Origin: Longimicrobiales bacterium
GTDB lineage: Bacteria; Gemmatimonadota; Gemmatimonadetes; Longimicrobiales; Gaopeijiaceae
Assembly: GCA_041690395.1 (NCBI GenBank)
Contig: JAWLHJ010000007.1
Coordinates: 32,001-96,000, forward strand
Direction: 5' to 3'
DNA: 64,000 nt
Shown here: positions 341 through 12,880 of the stretch, piece by piece
How the letters are laid out: each line of letters starts with the position of its first letter
Numbering within the stretch: the first letter of the stretch is position 1
Position numbers and translations under genes: made by a program
The notes under the pieces: generated by a model
The model's input: only the letters and a program-made list of their open reading frames with translations
What the model was told of the DNA's origin: nothing
Database searches by the model: none

Positions 341-1035
341 TCCACGCGTCGGTGGAGCGCGGTGGGAGCGGTGTGCACGCACCGGGATTGGGCGAAAGTC
401 GACGAGCGATCCTCTCCGCCCTGAAGCAGTCGGGCGGCGCGACGGTCCCGGTGCTGGCGCGGATCGTGGATCTCAACATCGAGACGGTCCGCGAGCATCT
501 TCGGACCCTCAGGTCGCAAGGGCTCGTGGAACGCCGTGGCACGCGAAGCGAAGGCCCGGGTCGCCCGACCGTGGTGTACGGCCTGACGGCCGATGCCGAC
601 GCGCTCTTCCCTCGTCGTGAGGCGGAAGTGCTGCGTGAGTTGGCCCTGTTCTTGGAGGAAACAGGGAGGAATGAGGTCCTGAGCGAGTTCTTCGACGATT
701 ACATCCGGCGGACGCGTAGGGAGGCGCTGGAGCGCGTCCAGGGCCTCGAGGGACGGGAGCGACTGGAAGAGGCCGCCCGCATCCTGTCGGAGCAGGGTTT
801 CATGGCGATCGTGGAAGAGAGAGACGGCGTCCCCGAGCTACGCCTGTGCCATTGCCCGCTTCGGGAGTTGGTCGAGGTATCGAAAGTCCCCTGTCGCGCG
901 GAGGTCGAGTTCGTCGGAGCGCTGGTGGGGGAGAAGCTCGTGCGCATCGGGTACATGCCGGATGGGGACGCCACGTGCTGCTATCGTGGCGTGGCGTCAG
1001 CGCTGCGGACCAACTCCACGACAACCGGAAAGTGA
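337..1035 (+). CDS. SufR-like HTH transcriptional regulator with Cys-rich C-terminus
   Basis: GTG at 337 overlaps the ric stop (GTGA); wHTH ETVREHLRTL..QGLV..GPGRPTVVYGLT; C-terminal CHCP...C...CCY. Confidence 0.8.
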   Translation: MIHASVERGGSGVHAPGLGESRRAILSALKQSGGATVPVLARIVDLNIETVREHLRTLRSQGLVERRGTRSEGPGRPTVVYGLTADADALFPRREAEVLRELALFLEETGRNEVLSEFFDDYIRRTRREALERVQGLEGRERLEEAARILSEQGFMAIVEERDGVPELRLCHCPLRELVEVSKVPCRAEVEFVGALVGEKLVRIGYMPDGDATCCYRGVASALRTNSTTTGK

Positions 1036-1814
1036 TCCGAGGCCATGCGCTCGTCCACGACGCCGGCCTCGAGGACGTCCCAGCCGGACGTCGGCGCCGC
1101 GAAGACGAAGTCGATCTCCTTCCGGGGATCGTCCGTGGAGAAGGTGTAGCGATAGCCTTCGGCCTTGGCGGCCTCGGCTGCGCGCTCCTGGAAGAGGGCC
1201 AGTGTCCGTGATCCCGGCTCGTCGTTGAAGTCGCCGAGCAGGATCCAGGGGTGGGGCAGAGTGTCCAGGACCCGGCTCAGGGCGGAGGCCTGCCGGAAGC
1301 GATCGACGTCGTCATCGATCCAGTCGAAGTGGACGTTTACGGCCACGATGGTATCACCCTCGGGGAGGACGACTTCGGCCGCCAGCGCGATTCGCGGTTC
1401 CTGGCCTTGGGGGAGCTCGATCTCCCAGGAACGCTCCAGGGGAAGACCCGAGAGGATGGCCATGCCGTACTGCCCGCCCTGGTACTCCATGAAGGCGCCG
1501 AAGAGCGGCGTCATGTCCAGGAGGCGTCCCAGCTCTGCCGCCTGGTCCACCGATCCGCTTCGCTCTGCCTCTCGATCCACTTCCTGGAGCCCGATGAGGT
1601 CGGCTCCGACCACGCGAAGCACGTCGGCCGTGCGCTCCAGGTCGACGGTGTCGTCCATCCCTCGGCCGTGGCGGATGTTGTACGTGACGACGCGGAGAGC
1701 CTCGCGCGCGTCGGCCCCGTCCGCACCCGTGTCTGCCCCCGGGTGGGTGTCGGCAGGCCCGCAGCTCCACGGGCCGAGCGCTAGAAGCAGAAGCGCCGGC
1801 CACCTCCGGCTCAG
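981..1814 (-). CDS. Endonuclease/exonuclease/phosphatase (EEP) family protein, probable lipoprotein, non-canonical CTG start
   Basis: LRVVTYNIRHG, DLIGLQEVD, ILLGDFND, IDFVF, SDHFPV; the first motif lies upstream of the ORF-track ATG at 1658; CTG at 1814 has GGAGGAGG 7 nt upstream. Confidence 0.85.
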   Translation of the reverse strand: MSRRWPALLLLALGPWSCGPADTHPGADTGADGADAREALRVVTYNIRHGRGMDDTVDLERTADVLRVVGADLIGLQEVDREAERSGSVDQAAELGRLLDMTPLFGAFMEYQGGQYGMAILSGLPLERSWEIELPQGQEPRIALAAEVVLPEGDTIVAVNVHFDWIDDDVDRFRQASALSRVLDTLPHPWILLGDFNDEPGSRTLALFQERAAEAAKAEGYRYTFSTDDPRKEIDFVFAAPTSGWDVLEAGVVDERMASDHFPVVVELVRSADATPR

Positions 1815-3208
1815 AGCCGCACCTCCTCCACCGAGCCAGCCAGCCGGCTCCGCTCCGCCGCGAAGGCCATGACGTGGCTCTCGACCGAAGCGCCGAGGGA
1901 CGAGGTGAGGAGCGAGCTGTCCTGCTGCGACACCGCCTGTACCCAGTTCGCGATGAGCCTCCAGTCTCCGCCACCGTGGCCCGAGCCCGCGTACCGGTCC
2001 ACGTCCAGCACCCGGCTCTCGATGACCTCCCGAGATCCCGTACGGAAGTCATAGACGGTCATCTCGCTCATGTCACCCTCGATGTAGCCCATGCTCCCCA
2101 TGACCCGGGTACGGCGCCCACCCCAGGGGGTGAAGGCCTCCATGGAGAAGCTCGCCGTCACCCCGCCCTCGAAGAGGATGTTCGTGACATAGTGGTCGCA
2201 CTGGTCGTTGTCCATCCGGTAGACGCAGCGCCCGTAGTTCGTCGTGCGGAGGTACTCCAGGATGGCGTCGCCCCACGCCTCGCGGTCGTCCGGCAGGTCG
2301 AACACGTAGAGCCAGGTCCGGTCCCGGTGATAGATCTTCAGGGCGGAGTAGGGGCACTCGGCCTCCACCGCGCATCCGTCCATGCAGCGGGCGGTGCTGC
2401 CCTCGGGCGCGTTGCCCGAGTGGAACCAGGAGAGATCACCGAACGCCTGGATCCGCTGGCTGGGGCGGTCGATCAGCCAGCGGAGCATGTCCAGGTCGTG
2501 CGACGACTTGGCCAGGATGATGGGCGCGGTGGCCACGCTGTCGTGCCAGTTCCCCCGGACGAAGGAGTGGGCCATGTGCACGTGCTCGATGGGCTCGAAG
2601 TGCTGCACGCTTACGACCCGACCGATGGCGCCCGAGCGCATGAGCTCCCGGAGCTTCACGAAGTACGGCGCGTAGCGGAGCACGTGGCAGACGGCCACGA
2701 TTCGACCCGTCTCCTCGGTGAGGGCCAGGATGTCCCGGCATTCCTGTTCGGAGGGCGAGATGGGCTTCTCCAGCAGCACGTCGTACCCCATGCGGAGCGC
2801 CGCCATGCACGGGCCGTAGTGGAGGTCGTCCGGCGTGGTGATGATGATGGCGTCGGCGAACTTCGGCCGGTCGAACACGTGCTCCCAGGTGACGAAGCGG
2901 TGCTCGTCCGCGATGGCGTGGGCCTGTGCGTAGCGCTCGTTCCGGATGGGGATCGGCTCCGCGACGCCCACGATGTCGATCTGATCGGGGTAGGCCAGGG
3001 CGAAGTCACCGTAGGTGTTGCCTCGTGAGCCGGCGCCCAGGGTGATGGCGGTGACGGGCCGCTCGGGCACGCGGAGCGCCTCGGGGTCCGGCAGGATGAG
3101 CGGCTCCCCCGCTTCGTTCCGGGCGTGGGCGGACCACGGGAAGAAGGTGCCTCCGAGAAGAAGGCCCATCGTCTTCAGCGATTCCCGGCGCGACAGATTC
3201 GAGGACAT
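1811..3208 (-). CDS. Tat-exported Gfo/Idh/MocA family oxidoreductase
   Basis: Twin-Arg signal LSRRESLK; GAGSRG, TPDDLH, LLEKP, HDLD; GGAGG before ATG 3208. Confidence 0.88.
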   Translation of the reverse strand: MSSNLSRRESLKTMGLLLGGTFFPWSAHARNEAGEPLILPDPEALRVPERPVTAITLGAGSRGNTYGDFALAYPDQIDIVGVAEPIPIRNERYAQAHAIADEHRFVTWEHVFDRPKFADAIIITTPDDLHYGPCMAALRMGYDVLLEKPISPSEQECRDILALTEETGRIVAVCHVLRYAPYFVKLRELMRSGAIGRVVSVQHFEPIEHVHMAHSFVRGNWHDSVATAPIILAKSSHDLDMLRWLIDRPSQRIQAFGDLSWFHSGNAPEGSTARCMDGCAVEAECPYSALKIYHRDRTWLYVFDLPDDREAWGDAILEYLRTTNYGRCVYRMDNDQCDHYVTNILFEGGVTASFSMEAFTPWGGRRTRVMGSMGYIEGDMSEMTVYDFRTGSREVIESRVLDVDRYAGSGHGGGDWRLIANWVQAVSQQDSSLLTSSLGASVESHVMAFAAERSRLAGSVEEVRL

Positions 3209-3298
3209 GAACGCCTCCATGGGGTGCGGAGGGGGATGGCGTGCGTGCGCCGCTAGAGTACGCGTCGGTCCGCCCCCCAGCAACGAGCGGTGGCTCGC

Positions 3299-4765
3299 TC
3301 AGACCAGCCGGAACGCCGCCGGTCCGGCGCCTGTCGACAGGAACGCGCACGCACCTTCGCGGTCCGGGAACCGCCGGACGTAGTCGGTGCGCCACGCCGC
3401 GAGGAAGCGGGTCACGTCCCCGGCCGGCACCAAGGCCCAGACCGCGCCCCCGAACCCGGCCCCGAAGGCTGAAGCCGCCGGGGCGCCGAGCTCCCGGGCC
3501 GAAGCCACGAGATGGCTCGTTTCCGGGACCTGGTTCCCCAGGACCTCCTCGGCGAGGGCCTGCGAACGTGCGGCGAAGTCCCCCAGGGCGTCCAGGTCAC
3601 CGGCCTGGATCGCGACCGCGGCGCCGGGGACGAGCTCCGAGGACTCGGTGGCGAACTGACGGAATCGGGCGAGGAGACGGGTATGGCCCCCTCGGCGTAG
3701 GATATGCTCCATTCGCGTGGCTGCGTCGGGCGAAACGTCCAGAATGGCGCCCAGATGGGGCTCCTCCCTTCCGGTCTCCTCCCGCCAGATACGGGCCGCG
3801 GCGTGCGTCTCCTCGGCCAGGCGGTTATAGACGTCTTTCGCCCCCGCCGCCTTCTCCGCGCGTAGGCCACTGGACGCCACGGCGAAGACCCAGCCCGGGG
3901 GGACGGGTGCGGCTTCTTCGAAGCGCGTGGGGAGAAATCCGTACCGGACTACCTGACCCGGGCGCGCCGCAAGAATGGCAGCATGGTCCTCGTTGCCTCC
4001 GTCGGTGCCCACGCCGGTGGGTCCTTCCAGGCTCGCGGTGGATCGCGGGTGTTCCGCGCCGAGGCCCGGGAAGGGGCGCCCCGCCTCCACCGCCGCGAGG
4101 TAGGCCGCCAGCCGTTCCCGGGCGCCGAAGTCGGCCGGGACGCCCGCGGCGAGTCCGGACCCCAGCGCGTCGGTGGGCGAGGCCGGGCCCTCCGGATCGA
4201 GCCCGGCGGGCCGTTCGGGCCCTGCTGCCCACTCGAGCCCCGCGGCCAGCGCCAGGAACGTGCCCACCACCAGGGCGCTCGAGCTGCTCATCCCCGACGC
4301 GGGAGGAAGATCGCTGACGAAGGCGACCGAGACGCCGCCTGCCACCTCGGGGAAGTCCCGAGCCAGGCGTCGAACCACGGTGGTGGGGTACAGAGCCCAG
4401 CCCCGGGCCGGGGCTGCCGGCGGGGGCCGGAGGGGGAGCCTCAGCGTCTTTCCTCCCTCGGCGTCGAGCATGAGTACCCCGTCTCCGACGGGCTCGCCGC
4501 GGCCTACGAAGCCGAAGCCCCACTCCATCGCAGCGAGTAGGCTGCGACCGCCCGCGTAGTCGGTGTGCTTGCCCAGGACCTCGATGCGCCCGGGCACGAA
4601 GAAGGCGAAGTCCGGGGCCCCACCGGTTCGGGCCTGGAGGCAGGCACTCGCCTCGACCAGGCCTCGGGCCACACGCTCCGAAGCACCTGTTGACAGCCCT
4701 CCGGCTTCGAGGCGCGCCGTCCAGGCGTCGGGCCCGTCCCGTCGCGCGGGCGCCGGTCCGCTCAC
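3299..4765 (-). CDS. Galactokinase-like GHMP sugar kinase
   Basis: PGRIEVLGKHTDYAGG, PPASGMSSSSA and GAGFGG GHMP motifs. Confidence 0.85.
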   Translation of the reverse strand: MSGPAPARRDGPDAWTARLEAGGLSTGASERVARGLVEASACLQARTGGAPDFAFFVPGRIEVLGKHTDYAGGRSLLAAMEWGFGFVGRGEPVGDGVLMLDAEGGKTLRLPLRPPPAAPARGWALYPTTVVRRLARDFPEVAGGVSVAFVSDLPPASGMSSSSALVVGTFLALAAGLEWAAGPERPAGLDPEGPASPTDALGSGLAAGVPADFGARERLAAYLAAVEAGRPFPGLGAEHPRSTASLEGPTGVGTDGGNEDHAAILAARPGQVVRYGFLPTRFEEAAPVPPGWVFAVASSGLRAEKAAGAKDVYNRLAEETHAAARIWREETGREEPHLGAILDVSPDAATRMEHILRRGGHTRLLARFRQFATESSELVPGAAVAIQAGDLDALGDFAARSQALAEEVLGNQVPETSHLVASARELGAPAASAFGAGFGGAVWALVPAGDVTRFLAAWRTDYVRRFPDREGACAFLSTGAGPAAFRLV

Positions 4766-5592
4766 AAGCGCACCTCCCGCCCTTCGAGCAGCGTCTCGAC
4801 CCGGGGTATGTCCGAGCGCCTCGTGAGGTCCAGCACGCCGGCTTCCACGGGGACCACGCGGACGCAGGCGCCGTCTTCACGCATCCGTAGACGGACCGCG
4901 TCGGGGAGCTCGTACTCACCCCGAGCGGAGAGCGGCACGCGTCGGCAGGTGTCCAAGGTGGCCGGCGTGAGGCGCCAGCAGGTCATGCTCACCATGGGAT
5001 CCGCACCGAAGGTGGCGGCCTCGCCCTTGTCCGGCTTCTCCACGATCCGGTCCATGCAACCCTGCCCATCGACGGAGATCAACGCGAATGACGCGATCCG
5101 CGAGGCCTCGATGCCCGACTTCTCGACGAGCGCTCGCGCCCGGAATCCCGCCAGGCCGTCTCCCTCCAGGCGGCGCACTTCCGAGACCACTGCGGCCGGG
5201 TAGAGGTTGTCGCCGTTGACGACCAGGACCGGATCGTCGTCGGCGAAGCCTCGAGCGGCGAGCAGCGCGTGGGCGGAGCCCGTGGGTTTCTCCTGTACCG
5301 CAACATGCACCTCGAGACGCCGGGAGCCCCTCCGGACCTCTTGCTGTCGCAGGTATCTCCCGATCGGATCGTCGCCCGGGCCCACCACCACGCACACATC
5401 CTGGATGCCACCGTCGGCGAGGGCGCTCATGACGTGGGCCAGGAAGGGGTGGCCGTGGAACGGGATGAGCGTCTTCAGTCCGAGGTCGGCCCAGTGTGCC
5501 TGCCGTTCGTCCAGCGTAGGGTCGCCTGCGTGACTCGCCCGCATGCGCGATCCCCGACCCGCGGCCAGCACCACGGCCTTCGCGGCGCTCAC
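4762..5592 (-). CDS. Sugar-1-phosphate nucleotidyltransferase (NTP_transferase family)
   Basis: KAVVLAAGRGSRMR, QEKPTGSAHA, VVNGDNLY, IVEKP, RGEYELPDA; GTG start at 5592. Confidence 0.88.
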   Translation of the reverse strand: MSAAKAVVLAAGRGSRMRASHAGDPTLDERQAHWADLGLKTLIPFHGHPFLAHVMSALADGGIQDVCVVVGPGDDPIGRYLRQQEVRRGSRRLEVHVAVQEKPTGSAHALLAARGFADDDPVLVVNGDNLYPAAVVSEVRRLEGDGLAGFRARALVEKSGIEASRIASFALISVDGQGCMDRIVEKPDKGEAATFGADPMVSMTCWRLTPATLDTCRRVPLSARGEYELPDAVRLRMREDGACVRVVPVEAGVLDLTRRSDIPRVETLLEGREVRL

Positions 5593-5651
5593 GCGCCGCG
5601 GACGGGGCCGCCGCCCACGGGTGCGCCGCCCACGGGCGCGCCGCCGCTCAT
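5589..5651 (-). CDS. 20-aa bridging mini-ORF MSGGAPVGGAPVGGGPVRGA
   Basis: ATG overlaps the PQQ gene stop (ATGA); its TGA overlaps the GTG of the nucleotidyltransferase (GTGA). Confidence 0.45.
   Translation of the reverse strand: MSGGAPVGGAPVGGGPVRGA
5601..5645 (-). repeat. Three imperfect 15-bp tandem repeats (GGCGGCGCNCCCGTG)
   Basis: Minus strand reads GGCGGCGCGCCCGTG GGCGGCGCACCCGTG GGCGGCGGCCCCGTC. Confidence 0.8.
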
Positions 5652-7576
5652 CGACCCGCGGGAAGCGCGAGCGCCACGAGCTCGGCCGGCTCACCGTTTC
5701 CTCCGACGGACATGACCACGTACTGCCGTCCGCGGTGCATGTAGGTCATGGGAAGACCGACCTGAGGTGCGGGCAGGGCAATCTCGGCGACGACCTCGCC
5801 GGTGGCCTTGTCGTAGGCACGAAAGATGGGGTCGCCCGACGCGCCCTCACCCCCCATCAGCAAGGTGCGGGTCACGACGAGGCCTGCCCGGGACGTCTGG
5901 CCGGTCTGCGGGATGAGCGCCGGATCCAGGCCCAACTCCTCGGCCACGTGCGGCGGCGTTCTGCCGTTCGGCACCATCCAGGCATGCTCCCCCGAGGTCA
6001 GGTCGATGGCCGTGATCCGCCCCCACGGAGGCTCGACGATGGGGACGCCGGGGGCGAGTTGGGCACGGGCAGGGCCCGCGATGTAGTCCATGTCGGAGAG
6101 ATCGCCTCCGGGCACGAGGGCCAGCACCGAGGGCGACGTGTGGGACCCGACGTAGAGGAGCCCCGTTTCAGGGTCCAGCGCGCCCCCTTCCCAATTGGCA
6201 CCGCCCAGGGAGCCCGGCAGCGACAGGGTCCCTTTCGTGCCGTCGGGGGCGTCCGCAAGCGACGGCGGGGTGAAGATCGGTCCCATCCGGTAGGCTCGGG
6301 AGATCTCCAGGGCGCGCGCCCTGATCTCCGGCGTGAAGTCGATCAGGTCGTCTTCGGAGAAGCCCTGGCGCTCGAATGGTGCCGGCCGGGTGGGGAAGGG
6401 CTGGGTGGCGGCCGTCCATTCACCGGGGACATCGGTCTGGGGCACTGGACGCTCTTCGATGGGCCACACGGGCTCCCCCGTCAGGCGGTCGAAGACGTAG
6501 ACCCATCCCTGCTTCGTGAGCTGCGCGACGACCTTCCGCGGACGACCGTCGATGACGATGTCCGCGAGGATCGGTGCCGTCGGGTTGTCCCAGTCCCAGA
6601 TGTCGTGATGGATGAGCTGGAAGTGCCAGACCTTTTCTCCGGTCCGACTGTCCAGACACACGAGGCTGGTAGAGAAGAGGTTGTTTCCGGGCCGGTGGCC
6701 GCCGTAGTAGTCGCCCGTGGCGGCCTCGGTCGGGAGGTACAGGTAGCCGGTCTCCGGGTCCCAGGAGATCTGAGCCCACACCGCGGCGTTGCCCGTGTAG
6801 CGCCAGGCGTCGTCGAGCCACGTGTCGTGGCCTTCCTCCCCGGGGTCCGGGATCGTCTGGAAGGTCCAGAGCTCCACACCGGTCCGAACATCGAAGGCCC
6901 GGACGTCGCCCGGGGTGTTGACCCTCGAGGGCGGGCGCATGCCGACGTGGTGCGCGGAGCCCACCACGACGATGTCGCCGACCACGGCGGGAGGCGAGCT
7001 GGCCCCGATGGAGCCCACCAGATCGATTCCGTCCCGGGTGCGGTGCCCCCGGTGCAGGTCGATGACGCCCGCATCCCCGAACTCCGGCACCGGGAGCCCG
7101 GTCGAGGCGTCGAGCGCCACGAGCTGGTAGCCGGGCGTGATGGCCAGCACGCGGCCCCGACCGTCTTCGTCCGCCCAGTACGCCACGCCGCGCCCGGGGT
7201 TGGCCCGCGGCGCGAGGTCGAGCCGCTCGCCTTCTTCGATGCTCCAACTCCAGAGCGTCTCGCCGGTCCCCCCGTCGATGGCGACCACCGACCGATCGAT
7301 GCCGGCAGTGGCATACAGGACGCCCTTCACCATGAGCGGCGTCGTGGCGCTGCGGATGAGCGGGTTGCTGCCGTAGTCGCGCGCGCTCCAACGCCACGCG
7401 ACCTCGAGGTCGCGAACGTTGCTCCGGTCGATCTGGTCGAGCGGAGCGTATCGCGTGTGCCCGGGATCCCCACCATAGACCGGCCAGGCGCCGTCGGGGG
7501 CGCCTGACTGAGCGGTTGCGGATGCGGTGAAGAGCCAGAACGAGAGAGTCGCGACGAGCAGCGGCGGACGTGGCAT
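5648..7576 (-). CDS. Exported PQQ-dependent dehydrogenase (glucose/quinate dehydrogenase family)
   Basis: Signal peptide ending ATA-Q; WPVYGGD..RYAPLDQI, Trp-docking repeats, HHDIWDWD, GGANWEG, PPWGRITAIDL, PMTY..GRQYVV. Confidence 0.9.
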   Translation of the reverse strand: MPRPPLLVATLSFWLFTASATAQSGAPDGAWPVYGGDPGHTRYAPLDQIDRSNVRDLEVAWRWSARDYGSNPLIRSATTPLMVKGVLYATAGIDRSVVAIDGGTGETLWSWSIEEGERLDLAPRANPGRGVAYWADEDGRGRVLAITPGYQLVALDASTGLPVPEFGDAGVIDLHRGHRTRDGIDLVGSIGASSPPAVVGDIVVVGSAHHVGMRPPSRVNTPGDVRAFDVRTGVELWTFQTIPDPGEEGHDTWLDDAWRYTGNAAVWAQISWDPETGYLYLPTEAATGDYYGGHRPGNNLFSTSLVCLDSRTGEKVWHFQLIHHDIWDWDNPTAPILADIVIDGRPRKVVAQLTKQGWVYVFDRLTGEPVWPIEERPVPQTDVPGEWTAATQPFPTRPAPFERQGFSEDDLIDFTPEIRARALEISRAYRMGPIFTPPSLADAPDGTKGTLSLPGSLGGANWEGGALDPETGLLYVGSHTSPSVLALVPGGDLSDMDYIAGPARAQLAPGVPIVEPPWGRITAIDLTSGEHAWMVPNGRTPPHVAEELGLDPALIPQTGQTSRAGLVVTRTLLMGGEGASGDPIFRAYDKATGEVVAEIALPAPQVGLPMTYMHRGRQYVVMSVGGNGEPAELVALALPAGR

Positions 7577-7696
7577 CGGCCCTCGGTGTAGGTGTGCGGC
7601 TGGAATCCGGCTCGCAATATGGAGCGGGGGCCAGGAGGGCGCGACCATGTAGGATCCGGGGCTGGCACGCCGGCCTTAAGTCCCTCTGACTCTAGG

Positions 7697-7820
7697 ATTG
7701 CATGGATCTGTACAAGCGGCACGCGATTGCATAATTTAATGCACTTCAAGTTCTGGATCGGAGCCACCCATCGTGCATCTTTTCGTACACGGCGACGCGA
7801 CTTGCCCGAATCCATGCAAT
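7697..7820. promoter_or_regulatory. Array of four 18-bp palindromic operator-like boxes between the divergent PQQ operon and satD
   Basis: TTGCA-TGGATCTG-TACAA 7698-7715; TTGCA-TAATTTAA-TGCAC 7727-7744; GTGCA-TCTTTTCG-TACAC 7773-7790; TTGCC-CGAATCCA-TGCAA 7802-7819; 29-bp spacing within each pair. Confidence 0.75.
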
Positions 7821-7855: not shown

Positions 7856-8488
7856 ATGAGCTACTTTGCGATCATCGGGGACCTCGTCGGCTCGAGGCAG
7901 ATGAACGACCGCGCCGCGGTGCAGCTTCGCTTCCGCGAGGCGGTTGACGAAGCCAACGATGTGGCCCACGGACATCTCACCGTGCCTCTCAAGCTGACGG
8001 CGGGTGACGAAGTGCAGGGCATCACGGGCCGGCCGGAGACGCTCGTCGAGATCATGGTGCGCGTGTCCGACGCCCTCGCGCCAGCGAGCCTCGCCTGGGG
8101 TTGGGGATACGGCGAGCTCACCACGGACCTGGTGGACGACGTCTCGTTGCTGGACGGACCCTGTCTGCACCGAGCCCGTGACGCTGTGGAGGCGGCGAAG
8201 AAGGCCTCGAGCTGGCTCGAAATTTCGGGTTTCCCCGAGCCTTCCGCCCAGGTCCTGTCTGCGTTGATGAACCTCATCGGCTCCGTTCGCGCGGGCTGGA
8301 CGGAACGGCAAGCCGAGGTCGTACGGGCCTCCAGGGGGAGGCTGCAGGTGGAGGCGGCGGAGCTGCTGGGAGTCGGCCCATCGACCGTAAGCCGCGCACT
8401 GAGCTCCGCACATGCTTCCCGTGTGTTCGCTGGAGAAGAGGCAGCCAAGGCGCTCCTGGAGAGCCTGACCTGGAGCCGCACCCCGTGA
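7856..8488 (+). CDS. SatD family protein (nucleotidyl-cyclase-like N-domain + C-terminal HTH)
   Basis: YFAIIGDLVGSR, TAGDEVQG, DGPCLHRARDA, WTERQAEV, Q.EAAELLGVGPSTVSRAL. Confidence 0.8.
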   Translation: MSYFAIIGDLVGSRQMNDRAAVQLRFREAVDEANDVAHGHLTVPLKLTAGDEVQGITGRPETLVEIMVRVSDALAPASLAWGWGYGELTTDLVDDVSLLDGPCLHRARDAVEAAKKASSWLEISGFPEPSAQVLSALMNLIGSVRAGWTERQAEVVRASRGRLQVEAAELLGVGPSTVSRALSSAHASRVFAGEEAAKALLESLTWSRTP

Positions 8489-9309
8489 CGATCCTGGATA
8501 CACTCGAGCGCCTCGACCTCCTGGTGCCGCTCCTTACCGCGCACCTGTTGGCCGACTTCGTGTTCCAGACCGACCGGATGGCGGCGGGCAAGGACCGATG
8601 GGGTGCTCTGCTGGGCCACGTGACGGTCGTGGCGATCACGAGCTGGGCTCTGATCGGCCACGTGGGTGCCGTGCAGCTGATCGTCCTCGTTTCGCTGCTC
8701 CATCTCCTGATCGACATGGCGAAGACCACGGTGGAGCGACTGGCATTGACCGGCCGCGGGGATGACGCTTCGGAGCTGGCGTCGGGGTTCTGGCCTCGGA
8801 ACGGTCGTCCGACGCTGTTCCTGGGCGATCAGGCGCTCCACGTCGTGTCCCTGGTCGTCGCCGTGCAGGTGACGGCCGGGGTGCCGTTCCTCTCCGTTCC
8901 TCCTCCGGACGGGGGTATCTGGGCGGCCGCGCTCGGCCCCTCGTACCTCCGCTTCCTCGTGCTCGTGTCGGGCTGGGTCGTCGCCACCACGGGCGCCGGG
9001 TACTTCTTCGCCCAGTTCCTCGAACGCTTCGAGACCCAGCTGGAGCCTGATCAGCGTGGCGGGCTCTCGAAGGGCGGGTATTGGATCGGCGTGACCGAGC
9101 GGTCCCTCATCTACCTCTTCATCCTCGTCGGCGAGCCGACGGGCATCGGCTTCCTCGCCGCCGCCAAGTCCGTCTTCAGAATCGGGGAGCTGAGAGAGTC
9201 GAAGGACCGAAAGCTGGCCGAGTACATCCTGATCGGCACGTTGCTCAGCTTCGCCGCGGCGATGGTGGTCGGTCTCGCGACCCGGGCGGCGCTCGACGCG
9301 TTGCCGTAA
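8485..9309 (+). CDS. DUF3307 (SatE-like) polytopic membrane protein
   Basis: AHLLADFVFQT, HLLID, DQALH, GYWIGVTER, AAKSVFR, EYILIGTLLSF; GTGA overlap with satD. Confidence 0.8.
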   Translation: MTILDTLERLDLLVPLLTAHLLADFVFQTDRMAAGKDRWGALLGHVTVVAITSWALIGHVGAVQLIVLVSLLHLLIDMAKTTVERLALTGRGDDASELASGFWPRNGRPTLFLGDQALHVVSLVVAVQVTAGVPFLSVPPPDGGIWAAALGPSYLRFLVLVSGWVVATTGAGYFFAQFLERFETQLEPDQRGGLSKGGYWIGVTERSLIYLFILVGEPTGIGFLAAAKSVFRIGELRESKDRKLAEYILIGTLLSFAAAMVVGLATRAALDALP

Positions 9310-9324: not shown

Positions 9325-10761
9325 TCAGCCGTCCCGCCGCCCCACCTGGCCCCCCACGCGGATCCAGCGCACCTCACCGGACTCATCGCGGATGAAGTCG
9401 CAGTTGATTCGGTCGCCACGGGTGTGGAACGCCACGTCCTCGCCGTAGAAGAGGACCGGTTCCGCCGGGTCTCCCACCAGCAGCCCACCGTCCGGAGCCG
9501 ACCGGACCTCGCGGGAGCGGCCGCGTCCGGTCCGGTAGCTGCCCACGTACTCGTCCGGTGATGGCTGACGGGCCAGGGGTGTGACGTGGTCGAGGGTCTC
9601 GGTGTGGCCCCGGTATCCGCAGATGGCCTGGTCGGAGGCCAGGGAGAGCCCTTCGTAGGCGCTCAGCGTGGCGCGTTCCACGACCTGGAGCAGCCGCCAG
9701 CCCTCGGTGTGGTTCGTGAGGATGGCGAACGCGAGGCGCCGCTCCGGGACGAGTTGGATGTGGCAGCGATGCCCCGCGCCCGCCGTCCCCCCGTGGGCTG
9801 CCGTGAGCACGCCGTCGAGGGTGCGCAGATGGAACCCCAGCCCCATCTGCTCGGTGGTGGGCTCCTTACGCAGTTGGGGACGGCGCATCGCTTCGCGACC
9901 CTGCCGGCCGAGGGCGCCGGGGCCCTCCCCGTCGTGCTCGCCCAGATGGAATGCCAGGTAGGTCATCAGGCTGTCGAGGCTCATGTTGACCCCGCCGGCG
10001 GGGATGCTGGAGCCCATGGAGTAGGGCCGCACGACCTGGGGCTCGCCTCCCGTCCCCGGGCGATGCCCCAGCGCCACCGGCCAGGTCACGATCTCCTCGA
10101 GCCGGGTGGACGCCCGCTCGAGTCCCACCGGCCCGAAGACCAGTGTATCCAGCGCATCGCGGAACTCCACGTCCGTGACCACTTCCACCAGACGCCCCGC
10201 CAGGCCGTACGCTGGGTTGTTGTAGCTCCACACCCGACCCGGAGGGGCGATCTGCTCGAGATCCCCCATGGTGGGGACCCACCGGGCGAGGGCGTCGGGC
10301 CCCTCGCCGACGTCGTAGCGCGCCTCCCAACCCGGTGAATGGGTGAGGAGGTGGCGCACCGTCACGTTCGAGCTGGTGATCGGGTCGCGGACGCCGAAGT
10401 CCGGCAGGTAGCGGCGGACGGGCGCGTCCAGATCCAGATGCCCCCGCTCGACGAGGGTCAGCACGGCCGTGGCGGTCACGGTCTTCGACAGGGACGCCAA
10501 CTCGAAGACCGTGTCCGTGGTCACCGGCCGCGGGTCCTCGACGCTCGTGACGCCGAAGCCCCGGGTGCGCAGGGTGCCGTCCTTGATCACCCCCAAGGCC
10601 GCCCCGGGAATCCGGTGCTCGGCCATCAGGCTCCGGACCCGGTTCGCCAGGTCGTCGAACGGTTCCGGCTGCGCGGGCCGCGGGCGCGCTGGAGCGTCCG
10701 CGACGCCCCGGAGCGCGGCCGGCAGCGCGAGGCCGGTGGCGAGGAAATGTCTTCGGTCCAA
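9325..10761 (-). CDS. Tat-exported serine hydrolase (class C beta-lactamase / PBP-like family)
   Basis: DRRHFL signal; SLSK (SxxK), YNN (YxN), HGG; LLTH. Confidence 0.88.
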   Translation of the reverse strand: MDRRHFLATGLALPAALRGVADAPARPRPAQPEPFDDLANRVRSLMAEHRIPGAALGVIKDGTLRTRGFGVTSVEDPRPVTTDTVFELASLSKTVTATAVLTLVERGHLDLDAPVRRYLPDFGVRDPITSSNVTVRHLLTHSPGWEARYDVGEGPDALARWVPTMGDLEQIAPPGRVWSYNNPAYGLAGRLVEVVTDVEFRDALDTLVFGPVGLERASTRLEEIVTWPVALGHRPGTGGEPQVVRPYSMGSSIPAGGVNMSLDSLMTYLAFHLGEHDGEGPGALGRQGREAMRRPQLRKEPTTEQMGLGFHLRTLDGVLTAAHGGTAGAGHRCHIQLVPERRLAFAILTNHTEGWRLLQVVERATLSAYEGLSLASDQAICGYRGHTETLDHVTPLARQPSPDEYVGSYRTGRGRSREVRSAPDGGLLVGDPAEPVLFYGEDVAFHTRGDRINCDFIRDESGEVRWIRVGGQVGRRDG

Positions 10762-10975
10762 GGTGCCGCTCCGCGGTTCGGGTGAGGTGATGGGCGCGCC
10801 GGCCCGCCTGCACGGACCGATCTACGGGATCTCCGCCTCCTGCACCACCCTCGGGGAGGGGCGGGTGAGGATCCCCGGAGGCGGTGTCCGACCGGAGCGT
10901 CGCGTCCTGGCGGCGCCTGCCGCTGACCGGCGCCATCGGAATGGTCACCACATCAGTCTTTACGCCCTGTTGGCG

Positions 10976-10991
10976 AGGCTCGCTTCTTGCT
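10976..10991 (+). promoter_or_regulatory. Possible sigma54 -24/-12 promoter of the RCC1-Fn3 gene
   Basis: AGGCTCGCTTCTTGCT has GG-N10-GC spacing, 60 nt upstream of ATG 11051. Confidence 0.4.
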
Positions 10992-11050
10992 TGTCGATTT
11001 CCTGGGAGGCGTGTCTGGCGCCTAAGATGCTTGAGGGCGAGGGGGCGGCC

Positions 11051-12880
11051 ATGAAGCGGGCGGCGTTCATCGGATTGGCGGGGTTTCTCGTGGGTGTGAG
11101 CGGGTGCGCACCGGATGCTCTTGCGCCCGAACTCATGGATGATCCCGGCACCCTCGCGGAGCTCGGTCACTCCGGCGCGCTGGAGGGAGCTGGGTTCATG
11201 CTGATCAGCGCGACCGGCGCCCCTTTCACGTGCGCTCTGAAGTCGCCCGGGGTGCCCTACTGCTGGGGCGTGGGCCGCGGCGCCGTCCCCACAGTCGTGA
11301 CCGGCGCGCCTGAGTTCATCCATCTCAGTGTCGGGCACGGTCATACCTGCGGAATCGACGCGGACGGCAACGCGTACTGTTGGGGGCAGAACGATTTCGG
11401 GGCGCTCGGGGACGGGGCCACGACGGTGCGCTCGCTGCCCGGGATGGTGACTGGTGGACACCGCTTCACGTCCATCAGTGCCGGATTCAGTCATACGTGC
11501 GGCCTCGAGGCCGATGGCGATGTGTACTGCTGGGGGAGCAACGCGACTGGCCAGCTCGGTGACGGTACGACCCTACATCGGCAAGAGCCTGTCGTCGTGA
11601 TGGGAGGGCAGCGCTTCGTTTCCATCGACGCCGGGTGGTTCCACACCTGCGGGCTCGAGGCCGACGGGTCCGCCTATTGTTGGGGTCTGGGTCGCGACGG
11701 GCGACTCGGCCACGGAGGAACGGACGACCGTTCCGTGCCCACTCGGGTGAGCGGCGGACTCATGTTCGCGTCGATCACCGCCGGAGGCTCACACACGTGC
11801 GGCACCGATACCGTAGGCGATGCCTACTGCTGGGGTAACAACTACTATGGAGCGCTGGGCGCATCAGGCGATCCCCACGCGCCGGCGCCAGTTATCGGGG
11901 CGTTCGCGTTCACCTCGATCAGCGCCGGAAGTTTTCACACATGTGCATTGGACCGGGAAGGACATGCCTACTGTTGGGGCGACGCCGAGTCCGGCAAGCT
12001 CGGTACGACGACCCATGCGCCCGGACCGAATCCCGTGGTGGGTGGCCTGGTCTTCGCGTCCATCAGTGCGGGAAGCGAGCACACGTGCGCCATCGACATG
12101 GAGGGAGACGCCTACTGTTGGGGCCAAAACGTGTGGGGGCAGATCGGCGATGGGACGACGGTGGACCGTGCGGTTCCCACAGCCGTCGTCGATCCGAGCG
12201 GTCACTCGGGCGCCGTGCCGACCGCCGCCGTCACCGATCTTTACCCCTGGGTCGTGACGGATACGCTGGTCCTCGTGCGCTGGACCGAGGTGGACGATGG
12301 GACCGGAGCTCCGGCGGACTACCGAGTGAAGTATTCGGAAGGGCAGCTGGCCGACTGGAAGACCGCCACCGTCGGTTGCGATCGCTGGGTCCGAGGTGAG
12401 GCGGTGGGCGCATTCATCCAGTGCGAGGTGGAAGGGTTGGAGCCGTCGACCGAGTATGAGTTCCAGCTCATGTCCTTCCGCATGGAGGATGGCCGCTGGG
12501 CCGGCGCGCGTTACTCCAATACGGCCAGGGCCACGACCCTCCAGCTGCGCACGGATCCGGTGACGGACCTGGCGGCTCGGGACGTGACGGAGGCCAGCAT
12601 GACCCTGGCCTGGACGCAGGTCGACGATGGCACCGGCGAGCCAGCCCGCTACCGGCTGAGATATGGTCCGGAGCCGATGATTCCTTGGCGAAGCGGTGCC
12701 ATCGGGTGTGACCTCGCGGGCGACGCCATCGGGGCGGAGATCGAATGCACCATCGATGGTCTCGAGCCCGGCGTCACCTACAGGGCCCTGCTCATGTCCT
12801 TCCGCCTGGAAGACGGAGTGTGGGTAGGAGCGCGCTATTCGAACTACGTCCTGATCACCACGGCGGAGAGCGGCGGCTGA
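11051..12880 (+). CDS. Lipoprotein with seven RCC1-like repeats and two Fn3-like domains
   Basis: Lipobox VSGC; seven F.SI.AG..HTC....G.AYCWG repeats; two VTDL..WT.VDDGTG.PA.YR..GLEP..LMSFR..GARYSN domains. Confidence 0.85.
   Translation: MKRAAFIGLAGFLVGVSGCAPDALAPELMDDPGTLAELGHSGALEGAGFMLISATGAPFTCALKSPGVPYCWGVGRGAVPTVVTGAPEFIHLSVGHGHTCGIDADGNAYCWGQNDFGALGDGATTVRSLPGMVTGGHRFTSISAGFSHTCGLEADGDVYCWGSNATGQLGDGTTLHRQEPVVVMGGQRFVSIDAGWFHTCGLEADGSAYCWGLGRDGRLGHGGTDDRSVPTRVSGGLMFASITAGGSHTCGTDTVGDAYCWGNNYYGALGASGDPHAPAPVIGAFAFTSISAGSFHTCALDREGHAYCWGDAESGKLGTTTHAPGPNPVVGGLVFASISAGSEHTCAIDMEGDAYCWGQNVWGQIGDGTTVDRAVPTAVVDPSGHSGAVPTAAVTDLYPWVVTDTLVLVRWTEVDDGTGAPADYRVKYSEGQLADWKTATVGCDRWVRGEAVGAFIQCEVEGLEPSTEYEFQLMSFRMEDGRWAGARYSNTARATTLQLRTDPVTDLAARDVTEASMTLAWTQVDDGTGEPARYRLRYGPEPMIPWRSGAIGCDLAGDAIGAEIECTIDGLEPGVTYRALLMSFRLEDGVWVGARYSNYVLITTAESGG

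Follow-up and report, generated by a model that had tools for sequence, protein, structure and literature searches.

Two kinds of described systems come closest to the gene pair treated here. Pycsar and Panoptes consist of a cyclase or an mCpol together with a membrane effector. The AbiE type IV TA systems (AbiEi; Rv2827c) are described as two-gene operons whose promoters carry repeats bound by the product of the first gene. For Rv2827c the promoter is reported to contain two repeat pairs between -1 and -131, and binding to this two-pair promoter to be negatively cooperative (PMC7319586).

The DNA analysed here, called the window, is a stretch of 64,000 nucleotides from a Longimicrobiales bacterium (assembly GCA_041690395.1, contig JAWLHJ010000007.1, positions 32,001 to 96,000 of the forward strand). 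Its plus strand encodes satD (7856..8488, 210 aa), the product of which matches PF16264 in a profile search (E 1.2e-18, 68 bits versus a cut-off of 29). The name SatD comes from the sat operon of Streptococcus mutans. The DUF3307 gene (8485..9309, plus strand, 274 aa; PF11750, E 4.9e-17) overlaps the stop of satD. The acid-tolerance label for SatD is repeated in PMC10326533. Literature searches, which excluded supplements and reached few subscription papers, returned no function, operator or cyclase activity for SatD-DUF3307; a prior mention is possible. Like AbiE, the pair is a two-gene operon whose first product would bind repeats in its own promoter, the binding of SatD being predicted. The 23-bp repeat of AbiE is described as taking up one monomer, whereas each satD box is itself a palindrome; the AbiE toxin is a DUF1814 nucleotidyltransferase, whereas the partner of satD is a membrane protein. 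Also unlike AbiE, the predicted binder SatD has a cyclase-like fold and a C-terminal helix-turn-helix. Pfam gives SatD and DUF3307 only and PADLOC gives none, so that the pair does not fall into the AbiE type IV TA systems.

The predicted SatD protein consists of a class III cyclase-like domain (about residues 1-145) and a C-terminal helix-turn-helix (150-184). Its structure model has a pLDDT of 95.8 and places the terminal helices at 150-159, 164-171 and 175-184; profile matches to helix-turn-helix families are weak, below the Pfam cut-offs, and were obtained for 34 of 55 homologues. No significant match came from sequence searches against solved structures. In Foldseek the top match is 7r65, a Pycsar cUMP synthase (E 4.9e-5), which aligns with Z 9.8. 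Residues 1-144 align with class III cyclases, GGDEF, GTP cyclohydrolase III and mCpol at Z 11-12.5, among them the class III cyclase 3et6 (Z 12.5, rmsd 2.9, 131 aligned) and the OptS mCpol (Z 11.5, rmsd 2.3, 103 aligned). According to the model the fold is class III cyclase-like, with GGDEF, mCpol and GTP cyclohydrolase III within about 1 Z. The order of genes, cyclase-like and then membrane protein, and the fold matches to 7r65 and the OptS mCpol are shared with Pycsar and Panoptes; unlike there, other class III cyclases fit SatD as well as or better than 7r65, and SatD has its own helix-turn-helix and predicted operators. PADLOC holds no model for satD or the DUF3307 gene at E<=1, and in Pfam the partner matches DUF3307 only, with no cyclic-nucleotide-binding domain, so that the pair is not assigned to Pycsar.

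D9, S13, D51, G101 and R108 are invariant in all 111 SatD proteins compared, which is why the pocket looks active or ligand-binding. By their position D9 and D51 are the putative two metal-binding aspartates. H105, found in 101 of 111, and R108, found in 111 of 111, may correspond to the transition-state Asn/Arg pair of cyclases, the register being judged from the cyclase motif. No fused longer forms of SatD scored, which counts as weak evidence. Histidine in place of asparagine at the transition-state position is reported for Rv1900c, and class III cyclases are reported to work as dimers, in a study whose subject is DUF2652 and not SatD (PMC4886424).

Upstream of satD the whole array occupies 7697..7820 and has a GC content of 0.50 versus about 0.67-0.72 for the flanking genes. 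As the initial annotation had proposed, it contains four boxes, each an 18-bp palindrome whose 5-bp arms flank a core of 8 bp (5-8-5). Box 1 (7698..7715) reads TTGCA-TGGATCTG-TACAA, box 2 (7727..7744) TTGCA-TAATTTAA-TGCAC, box 3 (7773..7790) GTGCA-TCTTTTCG-TACAC and box 4 (7802..7819), which has one mismatch, TTGCC-CGAATCCA-TGCAA; all are predicted SatD operators and, like the array and its linkers, carry no strand. A close to identical copy of box 4 is present in a congener locus (L002). From each box start to the next the distances are 29, 46 and 29 bp, and 28 bp separate pair 1 from pair 2, the latter lying in the predicted leader. Both 11-bp linkers (7716..7726 and 7791..7801) contain ACGCGA and an outer 11-bp inverted repeat (7697-7707 / 7810-7820) brackets the array, again as described before; the repeat extends to 20 nt at 80%. 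Neither feature is supported as a conserved element: the relatives keep the length of the linker and not its sequence, and inspection by eye showed only an imperfect outer repeat in L047 and no evident one in L003. A sigma-54 site in linker 1 was likewise rejected, the spacing from GG to GC being 9 and not the 10 of the consensus.

The 4.33-Mb genome contains 16 single boxes that match the symmetric consensus perfectly. Pairs at 29 bp with at most one mismatch are limited to the two of the window, with one other at 3 mismatches, and the box pairs are therefore not due to chance. In a scan with a matrix derived from 60 half-sites of 9 relatives, the window being excluded, the two window pairs take the top two ranks in the genome (39.0 and 30.5 bits), and box 1 is also the best-scoring single site. 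As the next best pair scores 11.7 bits, there is no genome-wide regulon.

The array sits in the intergenic region that satD shares with a divergent gene for a PQQ-dependent dehydrogenase (5648..7576, minus strand; start set by orthologue alignment), and this common position is what speaks for the alternative, raised in the initial annotation, that a regulator of the divergent PQQ and sugar genes reads the boxes. CATATT (7616..7621, minus strand) is a candidate -10 for the PQQ gene; it is partly conserved in two orthologues and lies about 75 bp from box 1. The initial annotation had also named the test, namely whether the motif tracks with satD or with the PQQ gene. Two congeners without a satD match carry the PQQ orthologue at 82% and 80% DNA identity. 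No box pair is found upstream of it in either of them, the best candidates having 7 and 8 mismatches versus 0 in the window, and the upstream similarity to the window stops near 7650, around the candidate -10 of this gene. Relatives of satD in different neighbourhoods, on the other hand, retain the array. The boxes thus move with satD and are missing before the PQQ orthologues, and elsewhere in the genome no pair comes close to those of the window in score. The array belongs to satD and not to the PQQ gene, and we regard its reading by a PQQ regulator as extremely improbable. With that, one part of the TA/Abi-like autoregulation first suggested for this DNA stands, the ownership by satD; the likeness to TA/Abi is an analogy, and neither gene is in a known TA/Abi family.

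The minus strand from 981 to 7576 encodes consecutively a PQQ dehydrogenase, a nucleotidyltransferase, a galactokinase-like kinase, a GFO oxidoreductase and an exo/endo-phosphatase. This gene row is no conserved operon, since in congeners the PQQ gene is located away from the sugar genes. At 10469-12880 the window encodes a protein with RCC1 repeats and fibronectin type III, which is probably secreted and likely starts later than the listed ORF.

The generality of the paired geometry was examined in a set of 155 loci, which comprised 121 distinct near-full-length satD copies, 119 of them above 60 bits. Removal of duplicates at 90% left 113, and 111 of these had enough unmasked upstream DNA. 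Among the loci are, according to the record titles, Gemmatimonadota, Chloroflexota, Planctomycetota, Pseudomonadota and haloarchaea. A motif-blind scan of the 111 upstream regions over spacers of 2-14 and periods of 20-41 has its maximum at a spacer of 8 and a period of 29, where the excess is 15.4 versus about 1-3 at most other periods; a weaker ridge is seen at period 28. A phased pair with p<=0.05 is found in 86 of 111 loci but in only 4 of 106 control stretches further upstream; the p value of each locus comes from dinucleotide shuffles and has a floor of 0.01, which 76 of the 111 attain. With four geometries (8/29, 7/28, 7/29, 8/28), picked after the data had been seen, the numbers are 101 of 111 versus 3 of 106, and 10 loci stay without a significant pair. 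A metagenome scan added only 5 distant satD loci.

Fifteen loci encode a SatD with Thr177 and Arg180. Six of them besides the window (L049, L059, L047, L134, L003, L026) show the arrangement 29-X-29 with X from 27 to 61, and L062 is similar; the others have two or three boxes at 29 bp. Exceptions are L139, where two single boxes stand 52 bp from each other, and L071, which combines an STVSR helix with TTAGC boxes. Because X varies to this extent among relatives, the pair appears as the fixed unit, with a free distance from one pair to the next. Fixed phasing between the pairs is ruled out by the same variable distance of 27-61 bp from box 2 to box 3. In the family f4 (L021-L044), a clade that mostly occupies a single conserved locus, the helix reads SA(I/V)SH and 17-bp TGAC boxes occur at a 28-bp period, the first starting with TTGACA; its partner protein matches only the C-terminal half of DUF3307.

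While the geometry is conserved, the half-site varies by lineage. Covariation with the protein was analysed in 79 loci, which are the 86 significant ones less 5 with another geometry or boxes far upstream and less 2 long branches. The top five mutual-information columns of about 200 are 180, 181, 177, 174 and 176, all of which are at the recognition helix of the helix-turn-helix; residues 176, 177, 180 and 181 of the predicted helix (175-184, codons at 8378..8407, plus strand) covary with the half-site. A second base other than T accompanies Gln or Asn at 176 (11/12 versus 0/67), and this association arises at four separate places on a tree made from the cyclase domain only. C at base 3 goes with Glu180 (30/31 versus 2/48), a pyrimidine at base 4 with Arg180 (13/16 versus 2/63) and A at base 4 with Ala177 (20/21 versus 2/58). 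A rule linking Lys or Arg at 180 to G failed (16 of 31), the pairs against it outnumbering the pairs for it.

Fourteen further loci outside the 79 obey the rule for residue 176 when inspected by eye. Gln176 occurs there with half-sites of the TCAAC, ACAAC, TCAAG and GCAAG types (L177, L178, L179, L180, L182, L183, L185, L192, L193, L205) and other residues with T (L176, L181, L186, L197); L177 and L182, both in this held-out set, are near-identical. The very distant SatD of L181, from a Vibrio plasmid, combines an Ala-Thr-x-Ser-Lys helix with a TTAGC half-site as in an unrelated clade, and L004 has a TCAAC half-site nested among TTGYA loci. Tree-aware tests of independent pairs were underpowered, with 2-5 pairs on well-supported branches, none of them significant, and relatedness could for that reason formally be the cause. 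The site sequence tracks the predicted recognition helix of SatD. Together with the linkage to satD this supports the earlier proposal that the boxes are operators for the SatD helix-turn-helix, and we consider it very probable that they are operators and that SatD is the binder.

One might instead see in the boxes the sites of a host factor or a recombinase, or an RNA structure, with SatD not binding at all. Palindromes of the 5-8-5 type resemble the core sites of recombinases, the cassette is located in varied places, and the array of the window has its outer inverted repeat. This repeat is not conserved, however, one integrase was found among 103 flanking proteins, and the half-sites switch with the SatD helix even among close relatives, as in L004. 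Since the box pattern spans bacteria and archaea, a host factor is a poor explanation, and readings of this kind appear to us very improbable.

A CATAAT hexamer lies inside box 2, as already pointed out in the initial annotation, and is the candidate -10 of satD-DUF3307 (7730..7735, plus strand); it has no good -35, and a sigma-70 scan found no full promoter at the array. By eye the same register reads TATAAT in L003, TATCAT in L047 and L050 and TATTCT in L052. Because the candidate -10 is in box 2 in the window and in the same register in these four relatives of the clade, repression is the favoured mode of action. It is likely, in our judgement, that SatD represses satD-DUF3307 through the array. 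SatD would dimerise via its cyclase-like domain, and a helix-turn-helix would sit on each of the TTG(C/T)A half-sites; one dimer would occupy a box and two dimers would be in contact on a pair. Cooperativity of binding is suggested by the fixed period of 28-29 bp only. Pair 1 would block the promoter and pair 2 would supply extra sites in the leader, and the repression might be relieved by depletion of SatD or by a change in the state of its active site. On this view the cassette would be self-limiting, holding the membrane protein DUF3307 low until needed.

SatD could also bind the array and activate the cassette promoter, or both activate and repress it. Room for activation is left by the poor -35 and by the -10 counts: a strong -10 lies inside the best pair in 28 of 86 loci, which compared with a shuffle mean of 20.5 and a maximum of 30 is no clear or significant enrichment. 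The call of a full promoter is missing as well, and pair 1 starts upstream of the candidate -10. Against activation, half of the sites lie downstream of the -10, which in the clade is itself inside box 2, and in many relatives hexamers like TTGACA and like a -10 overlap or adjoin the boxes, a consensus promoter being nearby in 38 of 86 (a raw count). Activation is unlikely, and autorepression is kept as the preferred reading.

The DUF3307 protein is all-helical and hydrophobic, with invariant H20, Q28, H45, H73, Q116, E205 and R206. No Foldseek match at E<=0.001 was obtained and the best Z is 7.9, which is no proof of a new fold. A DUF3307-like gene follows satD in 103 of the 105 loci with room downstream. 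In the reverse search, 30 loci from 35 matches were inspected; the C-terminal motif of DUF3307 is present in 25, and in 23 of the 25 satD lies upstream, the remaining two being a decayed remnant and a locus near a contig edge. In L204 (G646) satD appears deleted together with the first half of DUF3307, and a TTGGY box pair persists before the C-terminal remnant. L075 has satD with a strong TTCGG box pair; a DUF3307 gene was not detected downstream of it, and a gene for a GmrSD nuclease adjoins. Stand-alone short DUF3307 proteins that comprise only the N-terminal His-rich half occur without satD (L212-L216), and the long DUF3307 therefore looks like a fusion of two modules.

The presence of satD is patchy (3 of 7 congeners and 35 of 401 genomes of the phylum). 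Seven plasmid loci were examined, out of 3 and 17 records matched. SatD-DUF3307 is the sole apparent cargo of two small Rop-bearing ColE1-like plasmids from E. coli and Klebsiella; the loci L177 (1792-3481 of NC_019077.1, the 3.8-kb E. coli plasmid pEC34A) and L182 (362-1937) encode a distant SatD with DUF3307. Upstream of both there are 17-bp boxes at a 29-bp period, and SatD is annotated only as hypothetical. DNA of the pEC34A type had no match in complete E. coli genomes, and the cassette had none among viral contigs and phages. On a plasmid of Enterobacter kobei (L178, 1-7324) SatD-DUF3307 is located directly downstream of a Gabija system and an IS3. The flanking proteins were assessed with Pfam for the 103 nearest of 236 crudely called ones at 45 loci; there is one GmrSD nuclease and one integrase, 26 have no family and the rest are housekeeping proteins. 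The cassette may have a defence or toxin-antitoxin role, for which its patchy distribution, its position as plasmid cargo and its place next to Gabija on one plasmid speak, and against which the mostly housekeeping neighbours speak. We put forward as a tentative and rather doubtful reading that SatD-DUF3307 is a cross-domain nucleotide-signalling module for defence or addiction, in which SatD would be both second-messenger cyclase and autorepressor. Upon infection SatD would make a nucleotide that activates DUF3307 as a His-rich membrane effector, and would free its own operators, and the family would form an orthogonal repressor-operator library with a readable helix-to-base code.

Self-repression via promoter repeats is a familiar principle; here it would belong to an uncharacterised cassette of a cyclase-like protein and a membrane protein. 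A cyclase-like enzyme fused to its own predicted repressor and accompanied by a membrane protein of no recognised fold has a layout like that of nucleotide-signalling defence systems. The SatD family offers many naturally orthogonal pairs of predicted repressors and operators. As the geometry is conserved and the letters are lineage-specific, the predicted binding is directly testable via helix swaps, and the distant copy on pEC34A, where it is the only cargo, is a ready test case. For a widespread gene pair that has been labelled only through the acid-tolerance phenotype of a neighbour, the array provides a first functional handle.
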